DNA from: a virus
Taxonomy: Duplodnaviria; Caudoviricetes
Direction: 5' to 3' (one strand)
DNA length: 64,000 nucleotides
IMG/VR virus record: IMGVR_UViG_3300028048_000040
Location: 160,001-224,000 of that record
Shown piece after piece: positions 26,976-50,994 of this stretch (position 1 is its first letter; each line of letters begins with the position of its first letter). The translations under genes and the position numbers were made by a program. The notes beneath the pieces were generated by a model that saw nothing but the letters and a program-made list of their open reading frames with translations, had not been told where the DNA came from and ran no database searches.

Positions 26976-27211
26976 ATGAATCAATAAAGAAACAGATACG
27001 GTGGAAAAACTTAATTCATGGCGGAAAAGTACCTGATGATATAGTATGGGTGTATCTTGACCATTTAGAGGACCGTCATTTGCAGTATCTGTTATATGAT
27101 AATTACATGTATCATCTAGATGATGGTCGTCGGTATATGTATTATTTCAGCGAATCAAAAGATATGGGTTTTGTAGTCAAAGTAAATAAAAAAGAGGGCA
27201 ACAATCAATGA
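26969..27211 (+). CDS. Hypothetical protein
   Basis: Overlaps the RNAP stop; RBS present. Confidence 0.6.
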   Translation: MLNESIKKQIRWKNLIHGGKVPDDIVWVYLDHLEDRHLQYLLYDNYMYHLDDGRRYMYYFSESKDMGFVVKVNKKEGNNQ

Positions 27212-27570: not shown

Positions 27571-27619
27571 ATCACAGTTAATTCTATCTCCTAGGGATAT
27601 CCCTAGGAGATATTTTATA

Positions 27620-28021
27620 ATGGAGGAAAGTAAAATGATTACTAAAGTAAGAAACTCTCTTAAACTTAACATTGTTTTCATTGATGAAATCAATGATAAA
27701 AATCCTTGGTTAATCAAAGGTACAATTAAAAAAGCTATCGGCGATTTCTATATATTAGGATCTGAAAAGGTTAAAGAGGATAAACCATCTAGAAAAGTAG
27801 ATCCTTTTAAAATAGAATTTATCATGAAAAAAGCTATACTTACATTAAACTTATATGATACTCCAATGGAGTATGACAGTATAATGGAAATGGCTGATAA
27901 ATTCTTAGATGATATAGCTGAGCATTATAAAAGTAAAACAAAAGGTGGAATTATATGTAAAGATTATACTGGTAAACTTGTAGCAGAATATGTTACATTT
28001 AGTGTTTATCATGCCCATTAA
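27620..28021 (+). CDS. Hypothetical protein, paralog family B
   Basis: GGAGG RBS; true start probably a few codons in (MITKV). Confidence 0.65.
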   Translation: MEESKMITKVRNSLKLNIVFIDEINDKNPWLIKGTIKKAIGDFYILGSEKVKEDKPSRKVDPFKIEFIMKKAILTLNLYDTPMEYDSIMEMADKFLDDIAEHYKSKTKGGIICKDYTGKLVAEYVTFSVYHAH

Positions 28022-28043
28022 TCAATATTAGGAGGAATTTAAA

Positions 28044-28448
28044 ATGGAAATCAAAACTGCAAAGGAAATTAGAAAAGCTATGAAAGATAAATTTGAAAAT
28101 AATGATCAGCTTGCTTTTGAAACTATTTGTGATAGTATAATGAAAAAGATAGAGGTGTCGGCATTAACAAATGCTCGCTTCTTTACTGTATATGATTTTG
28201 AAAAACAATTAGACTATCTTGAACTCTCGTCATCAATTAAAGAAACAGATGAAAAAGTGATTGGATATTTAAAATTTATAATCAATTCCTATAAAAGTAA
28301 ATCAGATAAAGAGTTATATAATGCTTTTGAATCTCAAATAGTAAATCTTCTTATAGTAAAAGGATATACTGTTGAGAAAGAAGAAGGACTTTTAAATAGA
28401 TTCAAAATTACTATTAGATGGGATAAAGAAGTAGATGAGGGAAATTAA
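28044..28448 (+). CDS. Hypothetical protein, paralog family A
   Basis: TAKEIRK...KGYTV...ITIRWD. Confidence 0.7.
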   Translation: MEIKTAKEIRKAMKDKFENNDQLAFETICDSIMKKIEVSALTNARFFTVYDFEKQLDYLELSSSIKETDEKVIGYLKFIINSYKSKSDKELYNAFESQIVNLLIVKGYTVEKEEGLLNRFKITIRWDKEVDEGN

Positions 28449-28450
28449 TA

Positions 28451-28786
28451 ATGGCTGCTTATCAAATACTTTTAAGAAACGTAGATTTTATCATTAATGA
28501 GAATGGTATTGTTGATAAGAGATTGCTTAAGAAAGCATTTGATAATAGAATAGTGTTTGATAATAAACGTCAATCATCAACCAATACTATTCAAATTCAA
28601 GCAAAGCAATCTGAGATAATGATTACTTATAACAAAGATATCTTATACAATGATCTCATCTCATTCTATAATGGGTTTATATCTAACTGTGTTAGATTAG
28701 CTCATGAACTTGATACTCCATTTATAACTGTAGATGTATTCTCAGTTGATGGTAAGTTATCTGCCTTTTATAGATCACATAGATGA
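28451..28786 (+). CDS. Hypothetical protein, paralog family B
   Basis: GAGGG RBS. Confidence 0.65.
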   Translation: MAAYQILLRNVDFIINENGIVDKRLLKKAFDNRIVFDNKRQSSTNTIQIQAKQSEIMITYNKDILYNDLISFYNGFISNCVRLAHELDTPFITVDVFSVDGKLSAFYRSHR

Positions 28787-28801
28787 TATGGAGGAATAAA
28801 A

Positions 28802-29176
28802 ATGATTGACAAGAAAACTGCTAAAACATGGTCTGATATGGCTAAAGAACAATTGGAAAAGAATTGGAAGATTAATGTTATTACCAAAGCAAAAGTAAAA
28901 ACTCCAATAGATTTATTGGATGCTGTTACTAAATATATTGATAAGAAGATTGTTGGTTATGCCAAAGTTACTGGTAATACATCCGTTTCTATTAATCTAG
29001 ATAAGATTAGAAAGAGTATTACTGCTAATGAAAATGCACTTACAGTATTAGGAAAGAATAATCTTACTATAGATTCTTATGTAAATAAAACTATAGTAGA
29101 AATGCTTAGAGATAATGATTTTAACGTCACTGAGCTCATGTCTGAAGATAAGCTTATTGTTGATTGGACTAAGTAA
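28802..29176 (+). CDS. Hypothetical protein, paralog family A
   Basis: TAKTWSD...NDFNV...LIVDWT. Confidence 0.7.
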   Translation: MIDKKTAKTWSDMAKEQLEKNWKINVITKAKVKTPIDLLDAVTKYIDKKIVGYAKVTGNTSVSINLDKIRKSITANENALTVLGKNNLTIDSYVNKTIVEMLRDNDFNVTELMSEDKLIVDWTK

Positions 29177-29264
29177 ACTTTGATATAAGTATATACTATT
29201 TAAGTGTAGGTGTCTTATGACACCTACACTAATTTGTTTTATGAGATAGAAAGGAAGAGATAAA

Positions 29265-29681
29265 ATGCAAAATTCACCAGTAGATGATTACAGTGCACAA
29301 GATTTCAAAGATTTATCAGAAAGATGTATAAGCGAAGAAAAGAAGGATAAGATAACTAACCAATGTATATTGTCTAAGCTCATAAGTGATATACGATTTG
29401 AAGTCGCTATCAATAGTTTTGATGGTTTTACTAGCTGTAATGTATGTGTTAGTCACAATATACTACCAGCACCAAAAGAAGTATTGGAAGAAGTGATGGG
29501 TTATATTAAGAATTACTTCGAGGTTCTGGACTTTGATGTTACTATTAAAGATAATATAATATCTCTTGATTGGTCCAATGCAAATGAAGAAGATATGGAT
29601 AATGTAAGATATCAGAATATGCATAAACAAGGTAAAAAACAGCATGCTCCGAGAAAACATAATTTGAAGGTGATAAAATGA
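29265..29681 (+). CDS. Hypothetical protein, paralog family A
   Basis: SAQDFKD...LDFDV...ISLDWS; early promoter 29190. Confidence 0.7.
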   Translation: MQNSPVDDYSAQDFKDLSERCISEEKKDKITNQCILSKLISDIRFEVAINSFDGFTSCNVCVSHNILPAPKEVLEEVMGYIKNYFEVLDFDVTIKDNIISLDWSNANEEDMDNVRYQNMHKQGKKQHAPRKHNLKVIK

Positions 29682-29875
29682 GAAGAAAAAAGAAAAATAC
29701 CAATATAGATTATTCTTCTATAGCTAGAAAATCAAATCCTGCATTCTGGAATTACTCAATTGGTGATTCTAAATCACAATATACTGAAAAGTGCTATAAC
29801 GGTAGTCCATTGATTGAAAACAAATGCCATATCAATTTTAAAGATATCAAAAGAAAGAATATGATGGTAGTATGA
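29678..29875 (+). CDS. Hypothetical protein
   Basis: ATGA overlaps on both sides. Confidence 0.55.
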   Translation: MRRKKKNTNIDYSSIARKSNPAFWNYSIGDSKSQYTEKCYNGSPLIENKCHINFKDIKRKNMMVV

Positions 29876-30429
29876 AAAGTTCAGAATATATGAGAAAATT
29901 GGCTGACAATAGTGGTATTAAAGTAGATATAAATCTACTAACAAAAATACTATTTAGGGAAGCTGAAAAGAAAATAAAAGAAGCTGCAAAAAGAGGTGAT
30001 TATGAAATTTTATTGAACTTTAGAGGAATATTCTTAAAAGCAGAAGTTCCTAAGTATGCAACTAAAAAGAAATCTTATGTTCCTCTAATAGATCAATATG
30101 ATAAGTTGATAAAAAATCGTGTTAAACTTGGTAGATGGGTAAATGCATTAATAAGAGAATTCAACAGAGGTGGATATATAGTTGAGACTCTTTTATATGG
30201 TGAAGGCCCAGTTCCTTTTAGTAGAGATGATGAAAGTCCTGTTGACTTTGTTATTCCTGCTAGAACAAGCTTTTCTGGTCTTAGAATTAGATGGGACTTA
30301 CTTCTCAATCCTTCTTCAGACTTGAGTCGTAAATCAGATCAAGAGTTAGAAGAGATGATGAAAAATCCTATGCTAACCTCAAACCCATTTATTAAATCTT
30401 CACGTCCATTTGATGGGCCATCCTTTTAG
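29872..30429 (+). CDS. Hypothetical protein, paralog family A
   Basis: SSEYMRK...RGGYIV...LRIRWD. Confidence 0.7.
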   Translation: MKSSEYMRKLADNSGIKVDINLLTKILFREAEKKIKEAAKRGDYEILLNFRGIFLKAEVPKYATKKKSYVPLIDQYDKLIKNRVKLGRWVNALIREFNRGGYIVETLLYGEGPVPFSRDDESPVDFVIPARTSFSGLRIRWDLLLNPSSDLSRKSDQELEEMMKNPMLTSNPFIKSSRPFDGPSF

Positions 30430-30498
30430 ATTCTAAATCATAAACTACTATATTATAAGGTTTATAAACGCTATATATATTCTAAGGAGGATTTAACA

Positions 30499-30798
30499 AT
30501 GAACAAGAAAGAATTATCTAAGAAGGTTGCTGAGAAAGCCAATGTTACTGCTGCAGTTGCAGGGGAATGCGTTACTGCTACTTTTGATGTTATCAAAGAA
30601 ACAGTAGTAACTGGTGAGAAGGTAGATATTGCTGGTTTTGGTTCTTATGAAGCTAAAACTCGTGAAGCTCGTGTTGGTCGTAATCCATTGACTGGTGAAC
30701 AAATTCAGATTCCGGCATCTGTAGTTCCTTCCTTTAAAGCTTCTAAAACTTTCAAAGATTATTTGAAAGAAAATGGTAAAAATCTGTTAAAGAAATAA
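30499..30798 (+). CDS. hup: HU family DNA-binding protein
   Basis: MNKKEL...GFGSYE...ARVGRNPLTGEQIQIPA.VPSFKA. Confidence 0.95.
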   Translation: MNKKELSKKVAEKANVTAAVAGECVTATFDVIKETVVTGEKVDIAGFGSYEAKTREARVGRNPLTGEQIQIPASVVPSFKASKTFKDYLKENGKNLLKK

Positions 30799-30858
30799 AT
30801 ATTGCAGATCTAGAGAGGATTACTCCTCTCTAGATTTTTAAGTTAAAATAAGTTGGTG

Positions 30859-30963
30859 ATGATGAAAGACAAAAATTGTAGCAGTGGAGATAATAAGCTC
30901 TTCAAAATGATGATGATGATAAATCTTATGAATCAGAATAAGACAGAGACTAAAGATGAATAA
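30859..30963 (+). CDS. 34-aa Met-rich peptide MMKDKNCSSGDNKLFKMMMMINLMNQNKTETKDE
   Basis: Hand-translated; resembles the C-terminus of the next ORF. Confidence 0.4.
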   Translation: MMKDKNCSSGDNKLFKMMMMINLMNQNKTETKDE

Positions 30964-31174
30964 TGTTGATTATAATTCGAGTATTGATTCAACAAGATAT
31001 AGTCTTATGAGATCAGCTATTGGTTTTGATCAACTTGAAGGAAAACTTACATATCCAAATCTCCCTGAAGATGATGTATATAATCCAAGAATATATCCAA
31101 ATAAGAAAAAATCAAACAATAAGAAACTAAAGTTACTAATGCTTGCAATGATGATGAACAATCAAAACAAATAA
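30956..31174 (+). CDS. Hypothetical protein with Met-rich C-terminus
   Basis: Ends KLKLLMLAMMMNNQNK; terminator ~31180-31211. Confidence 0.55.
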   Translation: MNNVDYNSSIDSTRYSLMRSAIGFDQLEGKLTYPNLPEDDVYNPRIYPNKKKSNNKKLKLLMLAMMMNNQNK

Positions 31175-31250
31175 TCAATAGTCTAGGGATATTTCCCTAG
31201 ACTATTTTTTTATTTAAAGATATACTATATATTAGAAGGAGGAATGTAGA

Positions 31251-31538
31251 ATGTATGTAAGACCTTATGAAGCTCTAGAGAAACTTGGAAATGAATTGAT
31301 TTACATTGATGAATTGTCTGGAGAAAAAAGAACAGGAATTGTTGTGGGAAAGGAGAGAATAGGTGAGAGAGCTGTAATGGTATTAGTGGCTTCGCCATAT
31401 GATGATGAGAATAATAAAACGGAAGGGATGATTAGATATCGAGATATCATCATGTTTGATGATGTTCCTAATGATATTAATGGCTGGGGTAGAGATCCAG
31501 TATTAAAAGAGTATGGGAAATATATAGGAGTCGAATAA
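31251..31538 (+). CDS. Hypothetical early protein
   Basis: AGGAGG RBS, promoter 31219. Confidence 0.75.
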   Translation: MYVRPYEALEKLGNELIYIDELSGEKRTGIVVGKERIGERAVMVLVASPYDDENNKTEGMIRYRDIIMFDDVPNDINGWGRDPVLKEYGKYIGVE

Positions 31539-31539
31539 A

Positions 31540-32100
31540 ATGAATACTAAAAAAGAAGAGAAACAACGTTGGTATATGGTAAAAGAATCAATCTATTTAA
31601 AGAATGCTGAATACTACACTAATTGGAGATTATCATCCCTTATTAGATACCCACCAACTATTAATCTGGATGGAGCTATTGATACTTTTAAAGAGCTCTT
31701 AATGAAATATCTTATTACTTATATTCCTGATGGAAATATAAACCATAAAGAGATATCTGAACTGAGGATTATTTTAATCTACAATGAAACAGATTATTAT
31801 GGTACGCCAATTGCAAAATTCATTATCAAAGATTATAGGAACAATGGCGTTTTTAAAGTCAACTTAGATATTTTGCAATCTAAAACTAATAATCCTAATA
31901 GATTAAAAACTGGTGCTGTTGGATCTACTTTGCTCAGATCAAAATATGACTACTTTTCTGATCAGATAGAGGAGTTCTTAAATACTAAAATGGTATCTGA
32001 ATTCCTTGCTCCTAGAAGAAAGTTTATAAAAGAGGAAGATGGTAAAGGAGGGAAATCCTTTGTTCTATGTTCTACAAACAAAAACCTTTCAACTCATTAA
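31540..32100 (+). CDS. Hypothetical protein
   Basis: Operonic, AGGAG RBS. Confidence 0.7.
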   Translation: MNTKKEEKQRWYMVKESIYLKNAEYYTNWRLSSLIRYPPTINLDGAIDTFKELLMKYLITYIPDGNINHKEISELRIILIYNETDYYGTPIAKFIIKDYRNNGVFKVNLDILQSKTNNPNRLKTGAVGSTLLRSKYDYFSDQIEEFLNTKMVSEFLAPRRKFIKEEDGKGGKSFVLCSTNKNLSTH

Positions 32101-32488
32101 ACAAGAAGATGGTTCTTTTAAAGAAAATTTCTTGTGTGAAAATATTGATAGAAAGGTAAAATCCAAATCCCAGGTAGTTGAAGAGCTTAAAGAGGTTATC
32201 TCTAATGACTTATTTCTTAGTGAAAATGGTGGAGCATTCAATAAACTAAGTTTATTCTCTAATGCTAAAGATGGTTGTGTTACAGAAACTAAGTATTTTG
32301 TAGCAAGCATGGTATCTAGAAGAATAGATAGAGTTTATGTTAAGACAACATGGACTAAAGATCCTATTACTAGAAATAACTCTGATAACTGTCTTAGTAT
32401 AACTAGTAAAGATTACAAGAGCATCTATAAAGAACTCAAAAATTTTGTAAAAAATATTAAGGTAGGTGAACACTTTTGTATTATGTAG
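32039..32488 (+). CDS. Hypothetical protein, start uncertain
   Basis: Operonic ORF. Confidence 0.65.
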   Translation: MVKEGNPLFYVLQTKTFQLIKQEDGSFKENFLCENIDRKVKSKSQVVEELKEVISNDLFLSENGGAFNKLSLFSNAKDGCVTETKYFVASMVSRRIDRVYVKTTWTKDPITRNNSDNCLSITSKDYKSIYKELKNFVKNIKVGEHFCIM

Positions 32489-32760
32489 TGAATAGTAAGT
32501 ATATTGATGGAAAGTCTGTCTATGATATCCTCTATGAAGCTGCTACTATAAGAGACGCTTACGATTTTCTATATAATAATGGATATAAGCCTAACATTCA
32601 AAGTGAATATAAAACACCCCATTATCATAATGGGGTGTTTAATAATGTTTCAATATGGAAAGAATCAGATTTAGAACAGATTCTAATAGACTATGTAAAT
32701 TTTATTATCAATCAAAAGGAGGAATATCTTGGATATGAAATTAACAGATTTGAAGAATGA
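32476..32760 (+). CDS. Hypothetical protein
   Basis: Operonic, TTG start. Confidence 0.6.
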   Translation: MYYVVNSKYIDGKSVYDILYEAATIRDAYDFLYNNGYKPNIQSEYKTPHYHNGVFNNVSIWKESDLEQILIDYVNFIINQKEEYLGYEINRFEE

Positions 32761-33199
32761 AGAGATTCCTATGGCCGATGGAGAATGGGTTCAAGTTAAA
32801 TATGATGAAGTCCAGATAGTGCTTAACCAATACATCTACATGACTTTACCAAAAGACTTAATAGAATTATATATGGATTATAAATCTCTAAGATGGTTAA
32901 TAAAGATGCCTGAAGAGAAGTGGTCTAGAATGTGTATAGAAAAACATATTGGAGGCTCTAATCCAAATATGTTAAGATGGCAATATGAATGTTATGTTAA
33001 AGACGAAGTTCGTTATAATAAGAACTGGTGTTTTGGTATTTTGCTTAAAGATGATTCAATCGAAGGAGGACATCTTCTTTGTGCTCTTAAAGCAATCAAT
33101 AAAGTTGATTTTATTGGATTTGCTACATTCTTAATTGATCAAGCAAAATCACTCAGTTCTAAAAAGGAGGAGAAAATATTTGAATTACTTAAAATTTGA
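32729..33199 (+). CDS. Hypothetical protein
   Basis: AGGAGG RBS nearby. Confidence 0.7.
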   Translation: MDMKLTDLKNEEIPMADGEWVQVKYDEVQIVLNQYIYMTLPKDLIELYMDYKSLRWLIKMPEEKWSRMCIEKHIGGSNPNMLRWQYECYVKDEVRYNKNWCFGILLKDDSIEGGHLLCALKAINKVDFIGFATFLIDQAKSLSSKKEEKIFELLKI

Positions 33200-33638
33200 A
33201 GATGAAGAAGAAAAATCCCAAGATATCCATACATATAAAGAGTGGATTCTTCTATCTCAAACTGGAGTTACTTGGTATGGGTTTAATTCTAATAGAGAAA
33301 TTCATATACCTGAATGCGAGTTATACTGCAACGTAAATGGTCAAAATATAACTATTGTAGCTCCTATTAATGATAAGAAAGACCCATTTGATTGTTGGTT
33401 TAGAGGAACTATAAGAGAAAGATTTGTAGAACCTGGAGCAGATAATCTTTCTGAAATGAAAGAATGGTTTGAAGAATACTCTGCTCCACATACTATTGCT
33501 ATTGGATTTGAGCAATGGTTGCCAGATCAAAAAGTATTAACCCCTACATATTACGCTATTAAAATGGATACAGCAGATATGTATGATAAGTGGTTGGAAT
33601 ACATGATACTTCAAAGTTTAAATCAAAAAGATTTATAA
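33135..33638 (+). CDS. Hypothetical protein, start probably ~33180
   Basis: AGGAGG at ~33165. Confidence 0.65.
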   Translation: MIKQNHSVLKRRRKYLNYLKFEDEEEKSQDIHTYKEWILLSQTGVTWYGFNSNREIHIPECELYCNVNGQNITIVAPINDKKDPFDCWFRGTIRERFVEPGADNLSEMKEWFEEYSAPHTIAIGFEQWLPDQKVLTPTYYAIKMDTADMYDKWLEYMILQSLNQKDL

Positions 33639-33651
33639 GGAGAAATGCAAA

Positions 33652-34389
33652 ATGAAAAAAAGAGTAATCCTTTCTGGAGTGAATGAAGTAAAGATATTAT
33701 CTGATGACGTAACAAATGAAATAATTGAAGATTATCAGCAGTCTATGAATTTTATACATAATTCATATTTTGATGTTAGAGAAGTAGAAGTACTTGACTC
33801 GAAGGCTATTTTAGAATTTAATGCCAGTCCTATAAGCAAAGAAGCTTATGCTCCATTTATACGACATGGGTGCATTCCAGTAGTAGAAGTAAAAATACCA
33901 GAACTGGATAAGCTTGAATGGGGTAAGGATGATATTAAAATAAAAAATCCAAAAACTCATCTTACTTTCTATAAGAAAGATGAGTTTAACAATAATAATC
34001 AGTTGTCAACTAATATTGCTTATCTTCCAGATTTCGATAAACGAATAATTGATAGTGCTGGTGTTGTAAACTTCTTCCATGTTTATGAAAATCACTATAT
34101 TAGAGTAATATCAGATGCTTATAGAGGAGATTTTGGAACAAGGTTTGATCATCAAGTTACTATTCTAGATACATATGAATCTCTTGATTATATGGATCAA
34201 AGATTTGGATATGTATATAATTGCATGAATTATTATAAAGCCAATGTTAAACATCTTAGAGAGCATCTTAACGATTCATTGTATAAAAAAGTTGTAGATG
34301 AAAAGATTCCTTTAATAGAAGATAGTTTAAACAAAGATGAGAACTTTGACTTTAAGACTTTGAACGAATCTGATAAATTTTGGAATTAA
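33652..34389 (+). CDS. Hypothetical protein
   Basis: AAGGAG RBS. Confidence 0.75.
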   Translation: MKKRVILSGVNEVKILSDDVTNEIIEDYQQSMNFIHNSYFDVREVEVLDSKAILEFNASPISKEAYAPFIRHGCIPVVEVKIPELDKLEWGKDDIKIKNPKTHLTFYKKDEFNNNNQLSTNIAYLPDFDKRIIDSAGVVNFFHVYENHYIRVISDAYRGDFGTRFDHQVTILDTYESLDYMDQRFGYVYNCMNYYKANVKHLREHLNDSLYKKVVDEKIPLIEDSLNKDENFDFKTLNESDKFWN

Positions 34390-34403
34390 GGAGAGAATGT
34401 AAA

Positions 34404-35132
34404 ATGGAAAACAAAACTAAGTTCATTGTGGCAGATGAGTATTATTATGATGAAGGAGGCTCTGACCAATTCCCAATCTTTGATTGTGAAGAAGATGCTA
34501 GAAAATTTGAAGAGCTTCAAATAATCTATGAAGATGATGTATGTTATAATCCAGCTACAAATTTCAGATTTACAAAAGAACAAAGATCAGTTGTTGCTGA
34601 AATAGATACTATACCTGCAGGTCATCAACCTCCTATATTCGAACAAGAATTTCATATAGCTGAAAGATTTGATAATGTAGGATATTTTAAAACGTTCCAA
34701 ATAACTGATAATAATGGGGATATAAAATTCTTCACTAATGTAAATTGTTATATCTCTAGTATTAACAATATGAAAGATTTAAAAATTGGTTCTGTTAATA
34801 AATCAGAATATTCTATTGATGGTATTAATTTCAATAAAACTATTAAACTGGATAATGATGATGTTCTTTCCTATAGTGATTATGCAACTTTAAATGTATC
34901 TTCTAATCCAGTACTTGGAAAAGTTATTAACATAGCTATATTTAGACTATATGATAGATATCATTTTGAAACTAGTCATAGTGGATGGACTAAAGTACAA
35001 GTAGCTGATGAGTGTAAGAAAGTTACTGATGCTTTTGAATCTAAATATAAAAAGAATATATCTACTTATGCAGGAAAGTTTAGCAAAGATCTTGATATGA
35101 TACAAGATGCAATTAACAGTATTTTGAAGTGA
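34404..35132 (+). CDS. Hypothetical protein
   Basis: AAGGAG RBS before ATG 34404 (MENKTK). Confidence 0.75.
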   Translation: MENKTKFIVADEYYYDEGGSDQFPIFDCEEDARKFEELQIIYEDDVCYNPATNFRFTKEQRSVVAEIDTIPAGHQPPIFEQEFHIAERFDNVGYFKTFQITDNNGDIKFFTNVNCYISSINNMKDLKIGSVNKSEYSIDGINFNKTIKLDNDDVLSYSDYATLNVSSNPVLGKVINIAIFRLYDRYHFETSHSGWTKVQVADECKKVTDAFESKYKKNISTYAGKFSKDLDMIQDAINSILK

Positions 35133-35193
35133 GTATATTTGGAAAGGTGAGTATTCTCTCTCACCTTTCTTTTTTATAAGGAGGATAAAGATT

Positions 35194-35664
35194 ATGATAT
35201 TAGTATATTCTATTCCTATAGTGATAACTCCAGTAAACTATTCTTTTAGTAAAGAAGGGTTTAAACACAATGAAGTATATTGTTCTATGTTAACCAAAGA
35301 ATATGAACAAGTAGTTCCAAATCTTAAAAATATTGGTGTTGATGAAACTAATTATCTAACAGATCCTGATAGATTAGTGGGTACTAGAATATTTTCAGAT
35401 CTTGATATTCATGGAGATATATTTGATTATAGTATGAAAGATAGTATTACTATCTATAAATTCCCTGAAAATACTTCTATATCTTCTACATGGTTATATT
35501 TAGTTCCACAGAAAGATGAAGTAACTGATGAAGAGATAGAAACAGAAATAGATAAAGTATATAACGACATTCTTAATGATGGTCCTATTGATAATGCTAT
35601 AATTGAAAATCATCTTAAATACTTAGAATCTCTAGTTATATCAGCTAATAACAAGTTTAACTAA
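35194..35664 (+). CDS. Hypothetical protein
   Basis: AGGAGG RBS. Confidence 0.7.
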   Translation: MILVYSIPIVITPVNYSFSKEGFKHNEVYCSMLTKEYEQVVPNLKNIGVDETNYLTDPDRLVGTRIFSDLDIHGDIFDYSMKDSITIYKFPENTSISSTWLYLVPQKDEVTDEEIETEIDKVYNDILNDGPIDNAIIENHLKYLESLVISANNKFN

Positions 35665-35748
35665 TATAATTCCCTAGAACATATGTTCTAGGAAATTTAC
35701 TTGACTTTTTAGTAAGAATAATATTTATTTAAAGGAGGTTAATATAAA

Positions 35749-36369
35749 ATGCCTGATACTAGAAAAGGATACAAAGTTCCTGCTACTGTTATTGCAGGTC
35801 ATGAATCTTTCCCTGTAGCTGATTCTAATGATGTTGCAGGAAATATTATGTTTTTTGATTCTCCAGATAAGCTTACTACTATTCCTGTAGCTAAACGTAA
35901 ATTAGGTATGTTTGCTTATATTTATAATGAGGGAAGACATTACAAGCTTGTTAATAATAAAGCTGTGTTAGATGCTTCTTGTTGGGAACCATATGAATTA
36001 GTTAGTAAAGAATATGTCGATAATGCTGTTGCTAATGCTGGTGGTAGTGGTGGAACATCTACCCCAGTTGATGCATATACTAAAGCAGAATCTGATAATA
36101 AATATGCCCTTAAAACAGATATTCCTACCGTTCCTGATATTTCTGATTTGGAAACTACTCAGCATGCTGAAGATACTTATGCTAAGAAAACAGATTTAGA
36201 AGCATTAGAAGGTGTTGTTCCAAAAATTATCAATAATGTATTTGATATCCCTGAGGGTTCTTCTAATGATCCTCTTGTTCTTGAATTTGAAATCCCTAAT
36301 GGAACAGTTGGAATTAATGTATTTGCTATTGCCGAAGTTGAAAAAGAATCTTCTGGTGGTGGAGAATAA
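35749..36369 (+). CDS. Putative virion fibre or decoration protein
   Basis: Late promoter 35703; YVDNAV, Gly linker, AYTKAESDNKYALKTD and DTYAKKTD fibre-type repeats. Confidence 0.55.
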   Translation: MPDTRKGYKVPATVIAGHESFPVADSNDVAGNIMFFDSPDKLTTIPVAKRKLGMFAYIYNEGRHYKLVNNKAVLDASCWEPYELVSKEYVDNAVANAGGSGGTSTPVDAYTKAESDNKYALKTDIPTVPDISDLETTQHAEDTYAKKTDLEALEGVVPKIINNVFDIPEGSSNDPLVLEFEIPNGTVGINVFAIAEVEKESSGGGE

Positions 36370-36454
36370 CCAAATGAGCATATATCCAGAAAATATTGAA
36401 GAGCTTTCTATTGGCACTATTCAATATATTTCTTTATATTAAGGAGATGATATT

Positions 36455-36910
36455 GTGTCTGAATATAAAAATATAGATCAAAAATATATTTCTTCTGAAA
36501 TTGTTTTTGATGGATCAAAAACAACTATAAAAATTACTATTGATAAAGAAGCAATTTCAGAAAATGCTAAAAGGGTGCATATATCATATATGTATGTTAA
36601 CGAAAAATCTGCAGATCAACCAAAACCTGGAACTGTACAATCAGTAGGAACTGATATTGTTATTGATGAAAATACCCAATTTCCTATAACTGGAGAATTT
36701 GAAATAGATGGTGCTCCTCAGTCAGTAGAAGGCACCATAAAGAAAATGGTAACCTATAGAATTGCCCAGGCATCTATATATGACATTGGATTTGATGGTA
36801 CTTCTATTAGTAGTGATGCAGTAACAAATGATGCTCAAGCAGAATTCCTTGCTTTTAATGATTGGAATTCTCCTGGTGGTATAGCTATTAAAGGATCTCA
36901 TTATGAATGA
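36455..36910 (+). CDS. Hypothetical protein in a late operon
   Basis: AAGGAG RBS, GTG start. Confidence 0.65.
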   Translation: MSEYKNIDQKYISSEIVFDGSKTTIKITIDKEAISENAKRVHISYMYVNEKSADQPKPGTVQSVGTDIVIDENTQFPITGEFEIDGAPQSVEGTIKKMVTYRIAQASIYDIGFDGTSISSDAVTNDAQAEFLAFNDWNSPGGIAIKGSHYE

Positions 36911-36927
36911 AATGAAAGGAGTACAAA

Positions 36928-37935
36928 ATGAAACATTTTAGTTTTCAACTTGTTGATCTTGGACGTATTCTTACTAACATAGATAAAGCAAGATATCTAG
37001 ATACACATTCTGACAGAACACCAGCTGGTGAAGTAGATAATGATGATCCAGAATTTTTGTTAAATAGAATTTCTTCTAATTTTGATATTGGTGCCATACT
37101 TAATGATGGTTGTATGATAGGTTTTTTTTATGGGGTATCTGAAACAATAAAAGATAGATTATTAGGTTATAAAGAAGCTAGAGAGCAAGAAAAAATAAAT
37201 GGAACTAATATATTAGAAGAATTTGACAATTTTGAATTTGGACATGTTTTGGCTGATCAAGGTATACATTTAATAGGAGTAGGAGGACCAAATAGAACTC
37301 CTACTTTATTTACAATACCTTATGAAAATAATTATTTTATATATAAAGGCTTTTCTACGCAATTAGATGATATAAATTCAGAAGATGGCATTTTTGGTGA
37401 AATAAAAACAGCTAAATATGTTGATGAAACTTTAGGTGTTATACAAAAAAGCAATATGTCAGAAGATGACAAAGCGCATGTATTAACGCTAATTAGTTAT
37501 CTATTTTCGTCTTTACAATTAGATACAAGCAAACTTGATTATGCATATACTAGTTGGATAGGAATTGCCGATGTTTTTCTCGATAAAATTGGATATGCAT
37601 ATCCCAATGAACTACAAAATGAAGATCTGATTAAATGCTTAAAACAAGCAAGAGCACTCGAAGGGTACAACACTCCAGCAGGAGAATTCAATTATCCTAA
37701 TTTTACTATTTGGGCACTCCTTGTTTCAGTTGGTGAAGAAGGAGTAGATGATGATTGTTGCTTAGAAAGTATAACTATTGGAGATCATGTAACTTATGAA
37801 ACCGAGGTAAGTTATCCAATAGAAAATGTGCAAGTTGAAATAACTCCTCTTCCTAGAAATAGATGTAAAGTAAATTATACTATTACAGCAAATCCAGGAA
37901 ATAATGGAAAATTAGAATTTAAAGTAACTTATTAA
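36928..37935 (+). CDS. Hypothetical protein in a late operon
   Basis: AAGGAG RBS; terminator 37945-37972. Confidence 0.7.
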   Translation: MKHFSFQLVDLGRILTNIDKARYLDTHSDRTPAGEVDNDDPEFLLNRISSNFDIGAILNDGCMIGFFYGVSETIKDRLLGYKEAREQEKINGTNILEEFDNFEFGHVLADQGIHLIGVGGPNRTPTLFTIPYENNYFIYKGFSTQLDDINSEDGIFGEIKTAKYVDETLGVIQKSNMSEDDKAHVLTLISYLFSSLQLDTSKLDYAYTSWIGIADVFLDKIGYAYPNELQNEDLIKCLKQARALEGYNTPAGEFNYPNFTIWALLVSVGEEGVDDDCCLESITIGDHVTYETEVSYPIENVQVEITPLPRNRCKVNYTITANPGNNGKLEFKVTY

Positions 37936-37939
37936 ACAA

Positions 37940-38211
37940 CAAACTCACCCTAGGGATTTTTCCCTAGGGTGATTGTTATGAAGAAATTCAGGAATCGGGT
38001 TGGACGATAATCAACCCAAAGAAATACTTGTTAAGGGACTCGAACCCCTAATCAAGCAAAGCATCCTTATTTAAAAGTACTATAAGGATTAGATTCTTAT
38101 AAAGAATGTGTTACGGGTCATTCTTATAAGAAGATTTTTGTTTTGTTTTTTCTGAAGCGTTCTGACCACACCGTACCATCTGGTGCCAACAAAGATGGTA
38201 TGGTCTTGGTT
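37940..38211 (-). ncRNA. Candidate ~270-nt multi-hairpin ncRNA with a tRNA T-loop hairpin
   Basis: Promoter CACA-TAGATA-TA (38222-38211), five hairpins, terminal CCCTAGGG hairpin. Confidence 0.55.
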
Positions 38212-38226
38212 ATATCTATGTGCAAG

Positions 38227-38311
38227 AAATAATATATCACTAGGGACCTCCATCCCTAGTGATATATTTATTGTTTTGCCCAAAAACAATACGAGCAGTC
38301 AACTGACTCTT
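38227..38311 (-). ncRNA. Candidate ~85-nt sRNA
   Basis: Promoter AACT-ATATAA-TA (38322-38311), two small hairpins, terminator 38231-38268. Confidence 0.45.
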
Positions 38312-38329
38312 ATTATATAGTTATGACAA

Positions 38330-38436
38330 AAATTACCCACTACAGGTGGCAGCCTGTAGTGGATTGTTCAAGGGGAATACTTAAACAATAAATTTTAAGA
38401 GGAATGTAAAATGAAAAACAAAAAAGCACTCGACCT
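38330..38436 (-). ncRNA. Candidate ~105-nt anti-RBS sRNA
   Basis: Promoter GACA-ATATAG-TA (38447-38436), UUUUUCAUUUUACAUUCCUC tract, terminator 38337-38362. Confidence 0.55.
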
Positions 38437-38540
38437 ACTATATTGTCTATAGCTATTTAAAAATAAACAAACCCTTTAGTAACTTATAATACATTTATAT
38501 ACTATCTATATGGAGTCTATTAAGAAAGAAGAGTGATAGT

Positions 38541-39011
38541 ATGAACATTGACAGACCATCCATTGTATTCAATGGATACTTCAAAGGAACTATTTCAAAA
38601 GAAGCAGAACTACGAACTTATACTTCTCTTACTGATAATGCTGCTTTATCAGTATTGGAAAATGAAGATTCTATTTATTATCATAATAAGAACTTATCTA
38701 AAAAAGAGATAAGATATATGGATAATGTGATTATGTCTAGGTATGTTATAAGAAATTTGAATCCAGATGATAGTATTACTTTTGTTACTGTGAATTGCAG
38801 TAGAACTGGTAAAGAAGAAATAGAGCATCATTATACCTATTCAGTATCTATAATAGTGGTTAAATTTGATAATCCTTCAAAATATAGATATAAACCAGCT
38901 AAGATTAAGAAGATATGTTTAGATTGTATTATGGAAGAATACAAAAAGTATAAGTCGCAAATCAATACTTTAAGAGATAATGGTTTTGATATGTTGAAAA
39001 AGGAGAAATGA
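38541..39011 (+). CDS. Hypothetical early protein
   Basis: Promoter 38496. Confidence 0.7.
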   Translation: MNIDRPSIVFNGYFKGTISKEAELRTYTSLTDNAALSVLENEDSIYYHNKNLSKKEIRYMDNVIMSRYVIRNLNPDDSITFVTVNCSRTGKEEIEHHYTYSVSIIVVKFDNPSKYRYKPAKIKKICLDCIMEEYKKYKSQINTLRDNGFDMLKKEK

Positions 39012-40159
39012 AAATGCAAGAATTTCAAAGTAAAGCTTTAAAAATCAAAGATGATATTTTAGGTACTAATCCTGCTCTTTATGAAGTTATAGAAGAAACT
39101 TATAAAGATATGTTTCATAATACAATGGCTGACTTATGTTGCTGTGTTTGGCATATTAAAGGCTGTGGTATTTGGAGATTTGGTATATATTGTGACGGTA
39201 CTTTCATAGCAGAAATTGAAACTCTTGCCAAGTATTCAGAAGACTTCTCACCAGTGACAAGTTCTTTCTCTGTTCCTATTTCTATTCCTAATATTGAAGA
39301 TGGGTTTGAATACAATAAAGAAGAATATGTCTCTAGTTGCCGTAAGATAATCAATTGGATTAGAGATAATAAAGAAGAGGCTCTTACTTTTGCATATTGG
39401 CCAGAAGCATTCATTCAAAAGAATACTTGGGATATTCCAAGATTTAAGTTTGATTGTAAAATGGATTTAGTAGTTCCTCCAGAAAATTATAAGATTTGGA
39501 ATAGAATAGTATGTTGTATGCCATGGTGGGTATTTGGTAATACTATAGATAAAAAGGCTATCTTCGATAACTTCTATAAGTATTTCTATAAAAATAAAAG
39601 AACTAATCAGCAACTATTAAATAGATTCTATAATATATATAGAAAAGAATTAATATCTACTATTGTAAAATGCAATGTTGATATAGATGCTATGATGACA
39701 AAAGGATATGGATACAAATTCTGCATATATATAGATCCTAATAAAATGACAGGCGGTTTTCCTATTGATTTTAAAGAAATGAGTGTAGAAGAGTTTATCA
39801 ATAGTTTAGATTTTTATAACGACTACTCTATAGAAGAGGATCTTTCATATTTCTGGAATTTATTTCAAAATCATGCTAATGATATAGAAAAACAAATAAC
39901 CGCTGAATCTATATTTGATGGAATAGAACCAGATTTAGATTATAAATATAGAACTTGGGAAAGTATTATAGTCAGACCTACAAATTGGCTATCTAAAGAT
40001 ATCGAATTTAATATAGAAAAGTCTATTCCCTTCTGGTTAGCAGTAGAGATGGAAGAATTTGATTTCCAGTATTATACTTCTGGAGATGGTGAAAAACTAG
40101 GTAAATTGTGCAATTGCATAGATTATAGATTTAATAACAAGAAAAAGGAGAAGATGTAA
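39008..40159 (+). CDS. Hypothetical protein
   Basis: AAGGAG RBS; 383 aa. Confidence 0.75.
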   Translation: MKMQEFQSKALKIKDDILGTNPALYEVIEETYKDMFHNTMADLCCCVWHIKGCGIWRFGIYCDGTFIAEIETLAKYSEDFSPVTSSFSVPISIPNIEDGFEYNKEEYVSSCRKIINWIRDNKEEALTFAYWPEAFIQKNTWDIPRFKFDCKMDLVVPPENYKIWNRIVCCMPWWVFGNTIDKKAIFDNFYKYFYKNKRTNQQLLNRFYNIYRKELISTIVKCNVDIDAMMTKGYGYKFCIYIDPNKMTGGFPIDFKEMSVEEFINSLDFYNDYSIEEDLSYFWNLFQNHANDIEKQITAESIFDGIEPDLDYKYRTWESIIVRPTNWLSKDIEFNIEKSIPFWLAVEMEEFDFQYYTSGDGEKLGKLCNCIDYRFNNKKKEKM

Positions 40160-40160
40160 A

Positions 40161-40817
40161 ATGAAACTGATTGTAGTAGTAGACCTGCAGAATGAATTCC
40201 TTGGGTGGCAACCAAAAACTATCCAGAAAGAACTTCCTGAAAAGGTAGTGAACTATGTTGAGAAACAAATGGAGAATCGTTCTACAAGATTATTATGTAC
40301 TCGTGATACTCATCTTGAAAAGGATTATGATGAACATTTTGAATCTTGGACTTATCCTCTTCATTGTGTTCGTGGTACTTGGGAATGGGAAATTGCTCAA
40401 GAACTTGAATGTTATATGAACAGAATAGGTTATAAGAATTGCTGGGTTATCAATAAGCCTACTTATGGTGATTATAGAGAAATACTGCGTTTAAAAGAAC
40501 TATTTAACTGGGAATTCGATGAAATTGAAGTAGTTGGCCTTACAACAGATATTTGTGTACTGGCTACTATGGTTATGCTCAACTGTCTATTCCCTAAAGC
40601 AGAACTGTCTGTTATTGATGAGCTTACTTATGGTACTTCTGAAGAGAAGAAACAGCATGCTTATCAAATAATTAATTCTATGGGATTCCATATCAAGACA
40701 CTTCAAGGATTTGATTATAATTGTCCTGAAGCATGGGAAGATGAAGCTATTGAGAATGATGTAATCAATAAGTGCTTTGAAATAGCTGATAATCTTAAAG
40801 AGAAGGATGATGAATAA
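40161..40817 (+). CDS. pncA: Nicotinamidase / isochorismatase-family cysteine hydrolase
   Basis: VVDLQNEF, TRDTH, PLHCVRGT, INK, GLTTDICV. Confidence 0.8.
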   Translation: MKLIVVVDLQNEFLGWQPKTIQKELPEKVVNYVEKQMENRSTRLLCTRDTHLEKDYDEHFESWTYPLHCVRGTWEWEIAQELECYMNRIGYKNCWVINKPTYGDYREILRLKELFNWEFDEIEVVGLTTDICVLATMVMLNCLFPKAELSVIDELTYGTSEEKKQHAYQIINSMGFHIKTLQGFDYNCPEAWEDEAIENDVINKCFEIADNLKEKDDE

Positions 40818-43420
40818 TGAGAAAAATAATCATCATGAGGGGCTTGCCTGGTTCTGGTAAGTCCACATGGATTAGACAGCATGACCTAGAGGACTATACT
40901 TTATCTCCTGATAATATTAGAAAGATTGTTGCTAATCCTGTCATGAGAATAGATATCCCATACTTCGCTGTAGATCAGACTAGAGATTTCATTGCATGGG
41001 ATATTCTGTTTGATGTTCTGGAACAGAGAATGCAGAGAGGAAACTTCACTGTTATTGATGCTACAACTCTTACTGCAGACCAATTCAATAGGTATAAAAA
41101 GCTTATTGAAAGATATAAGTATAGAGCATTGGTAGTAGACTTTACCGATATGCCTGTTGAAGAGATCAAGAAACAGAACGCAGAAAGAGCTAATACAGTA
41201 GGTTATGTTCCTGAATGGGCTATTGATAGGCTCTATACCAGATGGGAGAATACTGAAGAGTTTATTAAGTCTAACAGATTTAAGATTATTAAACCTACCG
41301 ACTTCTATGAATTTGATAAATTCATGTCTATGAAACCTCTTCAGTTAGATGAAATGAGCTTCAAGAAAGTAGTATTCATTGGAGATATCCATGGTTGTTG
41401 GTCTGCATTGAATAACTACTTTAAGGATACTACTCCTAAGGATCATCCTGATACATTCTATATATTCTTGGGTGATTATCTGGATAGAGGTCCTGAGAAT
41501 GTAGAGACTTTCAAACACTTATACGAATGGAGGGAATACAATAACGTCTTATTATTGCAAGGTAATCATGAAGATCATTGGAAGAACTTTGTTCATGATA
41601 ATATTCCAACTGATGCTTATGAGAAGATTGATTTCTATAAAGAAACACTTCCTCAGTTAGTAGAAGCTGGTATCACTAAAAAGGATATTGCTAGATTAGC
41701 TGATAGACTTGGTCAGTGTGCATACTTGCAGAATAAGTTTACTCAAATTTTAGCAACCCATGCTGGTATCAATGGTATGGTTAAATCTTATGAAGATGGT
41801 AAGAAAATAGCTACTAGCTTCTATGATTCTTATTTCCTTACTAAAATGAATACTTATCAGATGGTGCATGGTGTTGGTGGATATGGTGATGTAAATAAGA
41901 TTGCTGAACAATGGGAAGAATTCATTAATGTTTCTAAGGGTCAAATCAAAGGTGGAGAATTTAAGTTCTACCAGATCTTTGGTCATAGAAATGATGATGG
42001 TCTTCCTGTTCAGGTTTCTGACCATGTCTTCAATCTAGAGGGTGGAGTATCTATCCTTCTCAATGAAGATGCTAGACTGAGGATAGTAGAGTATGATGTT
42101 GAGAATGATACTATGACTCCTGTGGAGGTCATAAATCCTAAGTGGAATATAGGTTATGAGAATACTCCTAATCCTCATACTGCTCTTATCAAAGATAGAA
42201 TGATTAGAGCTAAGGAACTTATCAATGTGAAGAGATTGCATGATAATGTATGTGCATTCAACTTCTCTAATGATGCTTGGTATTCTAAAGGATGGAATAG
42301 TCTTACTTGTACTGCAAGAGGATTGTTCATAGATGTAGAAAAGAATGAAGTAGTTGCTAGATCTTATGATAAGTTCTTCAATTATAAAGAAAGAAGAGAG
42401 ACAAAGGATCTTAATCAAATGCTTAAACATATCAAGTATCCTGTAAGTGTATATGAAAAGTATAATGGCTTCCTTGGTATTCTTTCTATATATAATGGAG
42501 AATTACTGTTTTGCAGTAAGTCTGAGGATCATTTATCCACTTACAAGAGTAATAGTGATTATGAACCTCCTATTGGCAAGAAGATTGAATATGCTATTAA
42601 GAATAGTCTACGGGCTATTATTCCCAAGAAGAAGCAAGAGGAGTTAAAGCATTGGTTTGATGAACATGAATACTATTCCATGTCTAGAATAGTAAATAAG
42701 CATCTTATTGACCATAGACAACCATCTAACTGCATGGCTCTTCTCTTTAAAGAGAATTTTGAGAAACTTGTTCCTGTAGAAACTCAGGAAAAGATTAAGA
42801 AATTCTTACTAGAGAAGAACTGTTCTATGTTGTTTGAGGTTATTGATCCAGAAAGAGATCCTCATATCGTTATATATGATAAACCTAGAGTAGTATTGCT
42901 TGATATTGTATATAATGATATTGAGAAGCCAGCAGCACTCTTCAGTTATAAGAATCTGCAAAATCTGAATAATGGCGTCTTCCATCTTGATCTCAAAGAA
43001 CAAGTAGAGGTCATTAAAGATGAAGAACATTTTAGAGCATTTGTAGAAGGATTCTATAGTTCTACTCATCTTAACAAAGAAGGATTTGTATGTAAAGATG
43101 CTGAAGGATTCATGCTCAAATTCAAGACAGCAGATTATAAGTTCTGGAAGAGTGTAAGAACTATGCTTGATTCAGTTAATAATAGTGACTATGGAGCTGT
43201 ACCAACATTCAATCATACTTGTCCTTACTTATCTGCTGAATTTGATCCTACTGTGGTTCAATACTATAGCAAAGTATTTGATAATTTACTAGGATTCTTA
43301 TTGGAAAAGTTTGGTCAAGAGAGAAGAGATGAACGTATAATCTTACCTCCTAACTTCTTAATCAAACCAGATGGTAGTAGATACAATGTGATTGATATTC
43401 GCAAAATGGTAGATATGTAA
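40817..43420 (+). CDS. RNA repair enzyme: polynucleotide kinase, metallophosphoesterase and Rnl1-type RNA ligase
   Basis: GLPGSGKST and IDAT; GDIHG, GDYLDRG, GNHE; ARGLF, KFFN, EKYNG, EGFV, KFK. Confidence 0.9.
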   Translation: MRKIIIMRGLPGSGKSTWIRQHDLEDYTLSPDNIRKIVANPVMRIDIPYFAVDQTRDFIAWDILFDVLEQRMQRGNFTVIDATTLTADQFNRYKKLIERYKYRALVVDFTDMPVEEIKKQNAERANTVGYVPEWAIDRLYTRWENTEEFIKSNRFKIIKPTDFYEFDKFMSMKPLQLDEMSFKKVVFIGDIHGCWSALNNYFKDTTPKDHPDTFYIFLGDYLDRGPENVETFKHLYEWREYNNVLLLQGNHEDHWKNFVHDNIPTDAYEKIDFYKETLPQLVEAGITKKDIARLADRLGQCAYLQNKFTQILATHAGINGMVKSYEDGKKIATSFYDSYFLTKMNTYQMVHGVGGYGDVNKIAEQWEEFINVSKGQIKGGEFKFYQIFGHRNDDGLPVQVSDHVFNLEGGVSILLNEDARLRIVEYDVENDTMTPVEVINPKWNIGYENTPNPHTALIKDRMIRAKELINVKRLHDNVCAFNFSNDAWYSKGWNSLTCTARGLFIDVEKNEVVARSYDKFFNYKERRETKDLNQMLKHIKYPVSVYEKYNGFLGILSIYNGELLFCSKSEDHLSTYKSNSDYEPPIGKKIEYAIKNSLRAIIPKKKQEELKHWFDEHEYYSMSRIVNKHLIDHRQPSNCMALLFKENFEKLVPVETQEKIKKFLLEKNCSMLFEVIDPERDPHIVIYDKPRVVLLDIVYNDIEKPAALFSYKNLQNLNNGVFHLDLKEQVEVIKDEEHFRAFVEGFYSSTHLNKEGFVCKDAEGFMLKFKTADYKFWKSVRTMLDSVNNSDYGAVPTFNHTCPYLSAEFDPTVVQYYSKVFDNLLGFLLEKFGQERRDERIILPPNFLIKPDGSRYNVIDIRKMVDM

Positions 43421-43478
43421 AACTGTAGAGTAGGGATCATTAGATCCCTACTCATTTTTATTATTAGGAGATGGTATT

Positions 43479-44039
43479 ATGATAATGGAAATCTTGGAAC
43501 TAAAACTAATGATCTTATTGTCTAATTTTAATGCACCAATTTTGTTTGTAACTGCTATTGGTATATTATGGTTAATTTCAAAATGTATTAGAGAAGTAGG
43601 CTATGGTGATTTAGGATGGGACTATAGAGATATTTCAGAGAATGAAAATAAAATAGTGTCATGTATACTGATTATCTGTGTATTACTTACTTTAGTTTTA
43701 GTAAATCCATATCATTATATGAATCATTGGAGTTTTATGTCTTGGGTATTTAAAGATTTATATGAAGCCAATGAAATTGGTTATTTGATAATGTTTACTA
43801 TAAATGATGTAACTTGTAGATTATTTTCTGTAATTTATCTAACAATATTAGCTTTTATACTTCACAAGCTTATCTCTTATGATAATAGAAATCTAGATTA
43901 TTTTGAAAATGTTTCTAGATATAAATTTGTCAATGCTCTTTCTATAGTTATTTTATGCTTAGCTTTGCAAATCTGTTCTTATGCATTGATTCCATCCAAT
44001 GATTTCATATTCACTCAGATGCTTGGATGGGAATTATAA
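43479..44039 (+). CDS. Multi-pass membrane protein
   Basis: Four hydrophobic segments. Confidence 0.7.
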   Translation: MIMEILELKLMILLSNFNAPILFVTAIGILWLISKCIREVGYGDLGWDYRDISENENKIVSCILIICVLLTLVLVNPYHYMNHWSFMSWVFKDLYEANEIGYLIMFTINDVTCRLFSVIYLTILAFILHKLISYDNRNLDYFENVSRYKFVNALSIVILCLALQICSYALIPSNDFIFTQMLGWEL

Positions 44040-50972: not shown

Positions 50973-50994
50973 ACTATATTGTACATAGAACTAT

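Follow-up and report, generated by a model that had tools for sequence, protein, structure and literature searches.

A conserved intergenic unit of an AR9-like jumbo phage as a candidate late small RNA mirroring early translation start regions

Several small RNAs of phages, namely, c4 of P1 and P7, sar of P22, and OOP of lambda, cover an RBS and thereby block the translation of phage genes, the pairing sites of c4 being copies of the c4 sequence itself. These RNAs, which function in the immunity or lysogeny of temperate phages, are products of the host RNA polymerase (RNAP) and act on one adjacent operon. In T4, early mRNAs are shut off at their SD/AUG regions by proteins, the translational repressor RegA and the endoribonuclease RegB. 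An exposed CCUC or UCCC that pairs with the SD, together with an intrinsic terminator, is found in RNAIII and RsaE, which are Firmicutes sRNAs with C-rich loops, and in prophage DicF. In the type I toxin–antitoxin pair Ibs/Sib, a tiny ORF is overlapped by an antisense RNA.

The c4 antisense RNA of P1/P7 is treated in a review (PMC12197685). The transcriptomes of phiKZ, phiR1-37, and AR9 contain antisense and small RNAs to which no roles have been assigned (PMC5312081, PMC12197685). The late promoters of AR9, used by the nvRNAP, have the consensus AACA-N6-T(A/G)+1; seven late promoters drive antisense RNAs, mostly seen at the end of infection, and the AR9 tRNA gene is late (PMC5312081).

The locus described here lies in an AR9-like jumbo phage of 342 kb and is predicted to give a minus-strand RNA. 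As with c4, sar, and OOP, its complementarity covers an RBS; unlike them, it is proposed to be a late product of a phage multisubunit RNAP in a lytic jumbo phage, with distant early genes as its targets, and it shares no sequence similarity with those RNAs. The function proposed for it is that of T4 RegA/RegB with an RNA instead of a protein as effector, and the likeness is functional only. It has an exposed UCCC and an intrinsic terminator like RNAIII, RsaE, and DicF but no Rfam match, and its promoter is of the phage type. A tiny ORF also lies under the antisense RNA, as in Ibs/Sib, but that ORF is unconserved and promoterless. The AR9 late antisense transcripts are, together with RBS-blocking antisense RNAs of temperate phages such as P1 c4, the nearest known counterparts: the candidate promoter has the same grammar as the AR9 late promoters, ACA-N6-T followed by A/G at +1, and the sole tRNA gene of the present genome is likewise preceded by a late motif, the AR9 tRNA being late (PMC5312081). 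The antisense RNAs of AR9 are reported to lie opposite annotated genes and are given no function (PMC5312081), whereas the candidate is predicted to be a discrete, terminated RNA of about 108 nt from an intergenic island. Unlike the AR9 antisense RNAs, it could act in trans because the start region that it mirrors lies elsewhere.

The locus, its neighbors, and its relatives

The DNA analyzed (hereafter the window) is a 64-kb stretch, bases 160001 to 224000 of a virus record of 342,328 bp (genome G000); it has a G+C content of about 30% and contains a split RNAP beta-prime-like gene. The candidate locus lies within a 605-nt intergenic region (IGR; 37936–38540) flanked by the + strand genes 36928–37935 and 38541–39011, neither of which matched a known family. 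No match to the IGR was found when it was used as a query against phage databases, near or distant, and the proteins of genes 36928, 38541, and 39008 had no relatives in viral contigs or in a set of 5.8 billion proteins. A look-up by exact protein matches gave an identical contig, which adds no information. Relatives were reached solely via the gene for an 867-aa kinase-phosphatase-ligase and via a hairpin pattern scan of metagenomes. Three relative contigs with the locus were obtained in this way, and they represent two lineages: L005 (IMGVR_UViG_3300021431_000076, 332,775 bp, also used as genome G001) and L013, whose differences from the window follow the L005 pattern, and L010, the second lineage.

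ARAGORN detected no tRNA in the window. Rfam searches at gathering thresholds found no family in the window or on the candidate sRNA, and with an E-value threshold, every match in the IGR was far below its cut-off, the best one for the sRNA unit reaching 15.8 bits against 63. Downstream of the IGR, the segment 40161–43420 carries a gene of the isochorismatase/PncA family (at 40161; PF00857), followed by the gene for the 867-aa fusion protein. This protein combines polynucleotide kinase, metallophosphatase, and T4-type RNA ligase domains, as in a Pnkp-like RNA repair enzyme, and is 94% identical in G001.

Promoter motifs and the minus-strand unit

The early motif TATAYYAT-N5-TG, which is embedded in a long AT-rich extended consensus, had 99 matches in the genome, 83 of them intergenic, and its stricter form ATATAYYAT-N5-TG had 77 matches (72 intergenic). 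For the late motif NACA-N6-TAR, 273 genome matches were found, and 99 were intergenic, compared with 38 to 47 intergenic matches at other spacings; overall, ACA-N6-TA is rarer than the neighboring spacings (783 matches against about 1075). As many as 56 copies of NACA-N6-TAR lie 12 to 70 nt upstream of an SD and ATG, with distances of 15 to 60 nt prevailing. The motif agrees with the AR9 late consensus. Judging from its intergenic enrichment, its co-orientation with and closeness to gene starts, and its position before the tRNA gene, the late motif appears to act as a promoter in G000. It carries only about 9 bits, and about 0.2 to 0.4 matches are expected by chance on one strand of a 600-nt IGR. 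We also noted that about eight late-motif matches of the form TACA-N5-ATAGTATATA are reverse complements of early promoters; such matches need to be masked in any late-promoter scan.

On the minus strand of the IGR, GACA-ATATAG-TAG (GACAATATAGTAG; 38435–38447) is an AR9-type late (nvRNAP) promoter motif with A 38436 as the predicted start. Read from 38447 to 38435, it has ACA at −10 to −8, a 6-nt spacer, T at −1, and A/G at +1, as in AR9, and it is identical in L005, L013, and L010. The extended form ACAATATA.TAG occurs in six copies genome-wide, where about 1.2 are expected by composition, and four of the six are AACAATATATTAG. One AACAATATATTAG copy is located 13 nt before the sole tRNA gene (Arg-tct) in G000, an arrangement also present in G001, and the three remaining copies precede short ORF-less units, two of which end in a terminator-type hairpin. 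The ACAATATA.TAG of the candidate resembles the AACAATATATTAG before the tRNA gene. A sigma-70-type scan found no promoter near the ORF or the sRNA. A further string, AACA-ATAAAT-TT at 38385–38396, was considered as a plus-strand late promoter and rejected, as it misfits TAR and a 6-nt deletion destroys it in the relatives.

From the promoter motif to a terminator and U-run, a non-coding transcript of about 108 nt is predicted (38328–38436, minus strand). Inspection for a minus-strand ORF in the transcript found no ATG and no SD. The transcript folds with an MFE of −30 kcal/mol (z −4.9), and the consensus fold of three homologues has two hairpins and a largely open 5′ half. Within this half lies a 30-nt single-stranded block (UUUUUGUUUUUCAUUUUACAUUCCUCUUAA; 38395–38424, minus strand), the complement of a start region made up of the SD AAGAGGA, the spacer ATGTAAA, AUG, and 3.7 codons. 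Both the L005 fold and the consensus fold leave the block unpaired; in the MFE structure of the window itself, 10 of its 30 nt pair weakly with the non-conserved 5′ end.

The block is followed by an internal hairpin of 8 to 9 bp (38365–38387, minus strand) with the C-rich loop UAUUCCC, a second anti-SD-like motif. One compensatory change, U:A to C:G, supports this hairpin, and its loop is invariant; it also contains one U:G pair in all sequences, which corresponds to an A.C mismatch on the plus strand. The terminator hairpin (12 bp with six G-C pairs; 38335–38364, minus strand) begins about 72 nt downstream of the start at 38436, is followed by AATTTTTG, and is recognized as a terminator solely on the minus strand. 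Its stem is invariant in the relatives, and its basal pair, U:G in the window and U:A in the relatives, forms on the minus strand only. The U-run after it consists of five T (38328–38332, minus strand; tail AATTTTTGTC), of which four or five are kept in the relatives. An antisense-only run of at least five T was found at only 4 of 138 hairpins between co-directional genes; a T tail is entirely missing from 39 of the 138 intergenic hairpins, and T-runs are therefore a weak guide to strand in this phage. The support for the structure thus consists of one compensatory pair and two minus-strand-specific G:U pairs, drawn from only two independent lineages. The unit has its own promoter motif and terminator, with no conserved ORF on either strand.

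The IGR core (38200–38500) is 77 to 100% identical to L005, compared with mostly 40 to 70% for the flanking genes. Because the whole core is conserved, conservation of the promoter motif is not an independent proof. The 30-nt block is 100% identical in the three relative contigs, and its flanks show substitutions and indels: the first ~12 transcribed bases differ and include a 1-nt indel, and a 6-nt indel falls in the linker. The promoter island CCTACTATATTGTCTATA shows no change across the relatives. The motifs, the predicted structure, the strand-diagnostic pairs, and the conservation of the unit are what the sequence analysis itself shows.

Other stretches of the genome have layouts like those of small RNAs. 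A second minus-strand late unit occupies 37940–38222, after the hairpin 38268–38231, and its promoter CACATAGATATAA (38222–38210) is identical in L005. The predicted RNA of ~270 nt (MFE −88 kcal/mol, z −6.6) ends at a bidirectional hairpin (37972–37945) and contains a tRNA-like T-arm minihelix at about 38025–38058. Between G000 and L005, the 5′ hairpin of this RNA has retained the loop GUUGGCACC but not the sequence of the stem. A conserved 66-nt stretch between two hairpins (38269–38334; 84 to 90% identical to L005) includes the palindrome AGTCAACTGACT as well as an AT-rich hairpin, TATTGTTTTG-CCC-AAAAACAATA. Neither strand of this stretch shows a promoter motif; should termination at 38335 be leaky, the sRNA could extend into it at the 3′ end.

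The promoter subclass AACA(A/T)TATATTAG precedes the sole tRNA (Arg-tct) and four ORF-less short units, three of which have a terminator-type hairpin; its sites lie at −136761(+), −94540(−), 153446(+), 163959(+), and 50276(+) in window coordinates of G000. The motif is kept in G001 at the tRNA and at the 163959 unit, and the members of the subclass are probably a set of late small RNAs. At 50883–50992 (minus strand) of the window lies the one further copy of ACAATATAGT(A/G) in the genome. Behind it, an RNA of ~100 nt is predicted, with a 5′ hairpin, then a linker UUCAUUUUGCAU that mirrors ATGCAAAATGAA, found where gene 33652 starts, and then a terminator; this unit was not found at the corresponding place in G001. 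An orphan strong + strand TIR (score 15.9; 12-codon ORF at 51228) lies in 51156–51312, a segment that is 90% conserved in G001 and that, while lacking a canonical late motif, has a minus-strand terminator behind the TIR. The layout of the candidate is comparable with that of the unit at 50982 and, possibly, of a third one near 51228.

Likeness to start regions and predicted targets

A first-pass annotation of this DNA had matched the locus to three other sites, and recomputation returned the same values. The segment 38402–38423 (GAATGTAAAATGAAAAACAAAA) agrees with 34395–34416 at 21/22 positions, and the sole mismatch, A against G, becomes a G:U pair for a minus-strand RNA; 38403–38418 agrees with 25301–25316 at 16/16, and 38404–38416 agrees at 13/13 with 40154–40166, where the isochorismatase/pncA-like gene starts. 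All three are sense-oriented translation start regions (TIRs) that resemble each other and are not antisense matches. The query 38402–38423 is itself 18/22 identical to the genome TIR consensus GGAATTAAAATGAAAAATAAAA, derived from 356 called TIRs.

The sequence ATGTAAAATG is present in 9 copies in the genome, each consisting of a GGAG-type SD, the spacer ATGTAAA, and ATG. Counted as the start-region type GGAG(R)(R)-ATGTAAA-ATG, these 9 copies compare with about 0.5 expected from the TIR column frequencies; those in the window are at 25302, 34397, 38404, and 40154, and all copies precede ATG starts of unrelated genes. The recurrence may reflect a site for a shared regulator or the spreading of a cassette. 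We also observed a 12-codon mini-ORF (MKNLCVSIYWIH; 25309–25347) behind a strong SD, overlapping a perfect 9-bp hairpin and located 30 nt before the RNAP beta-prime-like gene 25377–26975; it may be a leader or an attenuator.

The significance of the matches was examined with several null models. Among the 356 TIRs, the best partner of a TIR typically agrees at 15 to 16 of 22 positions, and a value of at least 21 is reached in one pair only, in which the TIRs are identical (22/22). A hand calculation from the TIR column frequencies, with the columns taken as independent, put the chance of agreeing at 21/22 with any of the 356 TIRs at about 2e-4, but this figure overstates the significance, as the spacer ATGTAAA is present 9 times where about 0.5 copies are expected. 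In the energy null, 5 of 80 reverse-complemented real TIRs reached a partner as good as −31.7 kcal/mol. In the shuffled-core null, with G:U allowed, a run of at least 22 appeared in 5 of 200 shuffles (2.5%), and sites with a run of at least 14 numbered 62 against 64.6 expected. A local-alignment null over 72-nt upstream regions was discarded as unhelpful because shared early promoters inflate the scores. The p value of the 34404 match depends on the null and is roughly 0.01 (identity), 0.06 (energy), or 0.025 (shuffles). On the basis of the TIR-pair, energy, and shuffle nulls, this match is modestly beyond chance and is the only one of the three that is; those at 25301 (16/16) and at pncA (13 nt) are at the chance level and ordinary for A-rich TIRs. 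The first-pass annotation had cautioned that A-rich start regions inflate chance matches.

The best predicted trans target is the TIR (34388–34417, plus strand; 21/22 identity) of the early gene 34404–35132, which encodes a 242-aa protein of no known family. The candidate block would form 22 contiguous pairs with it, one of them G:U, and the predicted duplex has an energy of −31.7 kcal/mol with the 30-nt core and −35.7 kcal/mol with the 72-nt 5′ part. The next best duplexes of the 30-nt core are with 28044 (−26.9 kcal/mol) and 119224 (−25.2 kcal/mol), and the second-best target is ordinary. Early promoters heading the + strand operons from 24964 to 44039 are at 24827, 24933, 29192, and 38498, and gene 34404 belongs to the operon behind 29192. 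Genes 34404, 28044, and 40161 are therefore taken as early from their operons behind early promoter motifs, and the earlier statement that the targets are early genes holds in the sense that the predicted targets lie in operons headed by such motifs. For the 30-nt core, 13 of the top 20 targets are early, and early sites pair better than late ones (Mann–Whitney p = 0.005); pseudo-sRNAs had on average 9.3 (made from early genes) or 8.3 (made from late genes) early targets in the top 20. The bias of the candidate toward early targets is small.

The TIRs of the candidate, 34404, and 28044 agree with each other at 19 to 21 of 22 positions, and their upstream likeness spans about 40 nt. Only three pairs of gene TIRs in the genome reach 20/22, 28044/34404 among them. 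Paralogy of proteins 28044 and 34404 was considered as the cause of the shared start region and rejected, as the proteins are unrelated. The likeness of the three would fit either a shared regulatory site or the copying of a start-region cassette. In G001, the orthologue of 34404 has 37% protein identity, and its TIR keeps 19/22 positions; against the seed, it scores 20/22, with one internal A to G change (G:U-compatible) and one terminal mismatch. The changes in the target (G to A, A to G) keep pairing, and the seed is invariant. Because TIRs are equally well conserved in 4 of 14 orthologues with below 50% protein identity, the conservation of the 34404 TIR is no evidence by itself, and because the seed is invariant, seed–target co-variation across the relatives is uninformative.

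In the mechanism that we propose, the minus strand of 38328–38447 would be a self-contained late transcription unit, in which an nvRNAP-type late promoter (ACA-N6-TA, start 38436) would produce a non-coding RNA ending at a hairpin and U-run. The predicted RNA would consist of a single-stranded 5′ half, a small hairpin with a UCCC loop, and the terminator, and the 5′ half would exactly complement a phage start region close to the consensus, with its SD, 7-nt spacer, AUG, and first codons. Because this open half mirrors a phage RBS and start codon, the RNA could block the translation of early messages. Late in infection, it would pair with early plus-strand mRNAs bearing GGAG-ATGTAAA-AUG sites, best with that of 34404 (22 contiguous pairs) and then with that of 28044, and by covering the SD and AUG would block 30S binding and possibly lead to cleavage of the duplex.

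We infer the transcription of the candidate RNA, its timing, and its repressive action from sequence features. The probability that a late minus-strand sRNA is made from the locus is, in our estimate, roughly 0.6. A role as a translational repressor is the most natural reading of the predicted anatomy of the RNA, and we offer the repression of early TIRs by base-pairing, with gene 34404 as the best target, as a tentative proposal that falls somewhat short of even odds. The late trans-acting antisense RNA put forward in the first-pass annotation thus fares differently in its two parts: a minus-strand late-promoter unit extending from 38436 to about 38328 is supported by the promoter motif, the orientation of the terminator, the minus-strand-specific G:U pairs, the one compensatory change, the pattern of conservation, and a plus-strand ORF that is unconserved and has no promoter motif, but the complementarity to targets exceeds only marginally that of any TIR-like sequence.

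Competing explanations and implications

The plus strand suggests a different explanation, in which no minus-strand RNA is made, the promoter motif is there by chance, and the plus strand carries a relic or spare start-region cassette that gives at most a read-through micropeptide. The plus-strand TIR PWM score at 38411 is 15.4, above the 75th percentile of real TIR scores (14.5), and 61 of the 78 positions scoring at least 15.4 are called gene starts. The phage also has orphan mini-ORFs behind similar sites (25309) and other short ORFs behind strong TIRs, the ~40-nt likeness to the regions upstream of 34404 and 28044 suggests copying, and the late motif is low in information. The mirror-image ORF of 13 codons (MKNKKALDLLYCL; 38411–38452, plus strand), however, behaves poorly as a coding sequence: it encodes 13 aa in the window, 22 aa in L005 and L013, where the stop is lost, and 16 aa in L010, where there is a +1 frameshift. 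Since length and frame change, the peptide is not conserved, though the DNA is, and the ORF is probably not a gene.

The first-pass annotation had described this ORF as having no evident promoter, and a PWM scan likewise found none upstream: no early promoter for it was detected on either strand, the sole match in the IGR being 38498, downstream of the ORF, and no NACA-N6-TAR lies upstream of it on the plus strand. Three terminator-type hairpins lie between it and the upstream operon, as does an AT-rich hairpin with a long T-run that was recognized by eye. Moreover, a relic would not exceed the flanking genes in conservation, and the A.C mismatch breaks the plus-strand version of the internal hairpin. 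Among 13 orphan strong TIRs in intergenic DNA, only that at 38411 has a promoter motif and a terminator on the opposite strand. Because the ORF is unconserved, promoterless, and separated by terminators, and because the pairing is patterned on the minus strand, we favor a minus-strand RNA gene with a start-site-like mirror image and consider a relic cassette unlikely.

A minus-strand late sRNA could also be real and have another job, such as acting on host mRNA, binding a protein, or stopping or interfering with transcription between early operons, the TIR-like image then being an accidental trace of a duplicated start region from which the RNA arose. Such a role would suit the evidence, which is much stronger for the transcript than for the targets, and the neighboring minus-strand unit 38211–37940 is highly structured (z −6.6) without anti-TIR character, so that the IGR island may encode structural RNAs. 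On the other hand, the most conserved single-stranded stretch of the candidate is an exact image of the region from the SD to codon 5, and a second anti-SD-like UCCC is placed in a hairpin loop, which is the usual design of a base-pairing regulator; we accordingly regard another job as rather unlikely and prefer pairing with start regions.

A translated plus-strand leader or regulatory mini-ORF, for which initiation alone would matter, is very improbable; the SD, spacer, AUG, and first five codons are strong and conserved, and a similar mini-ORF precedes the RNAP beta-prime-like gene 25377, but the conserved block CCTACTATATTGTCTATA would be left unexplained, and the early promoter 38498 comes after the ORF, which is therefore outside the mRNA of the downstream gene. 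Equally improbable is a type I toxin–antitoxin-like pair of the Ibs/Sib kind, in which a fully complementary cis-antisense RNA would cover the start region of a small hydrophobic peptide encoded on the plus strand: in the alignment, the 22-aa product of the L005/L013 ORF has a basic N-terminus and a hydrophobic tail, and the minus-strand RNA overlaps the SD, the AUG, and the first 26 nt of the ORF, but the peptide has 13 aa in G000 and is frameshifted in L010, and no promoter was found for the supposed toxin mRNA.

Should no RNA be made from it, the locus would be no more than a conserved curiosity. The silencing of early genes after the late switch is poorly understood in jumbo phages with two RNAPs, and a conserved promoter-to-terminator sRNA with a 22-bp predicted target would be a concrete case of RNA-based temporal control of translation. 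It is conceivable, though doubtful, that small RNAs made late by the phage RNAP mirror early RBSs more generally and switch off early translation as an RNA counterpart of T4 RegA/RegB. The promoter grammar may be used to find such RNAs in the genomes of uncultured phages.
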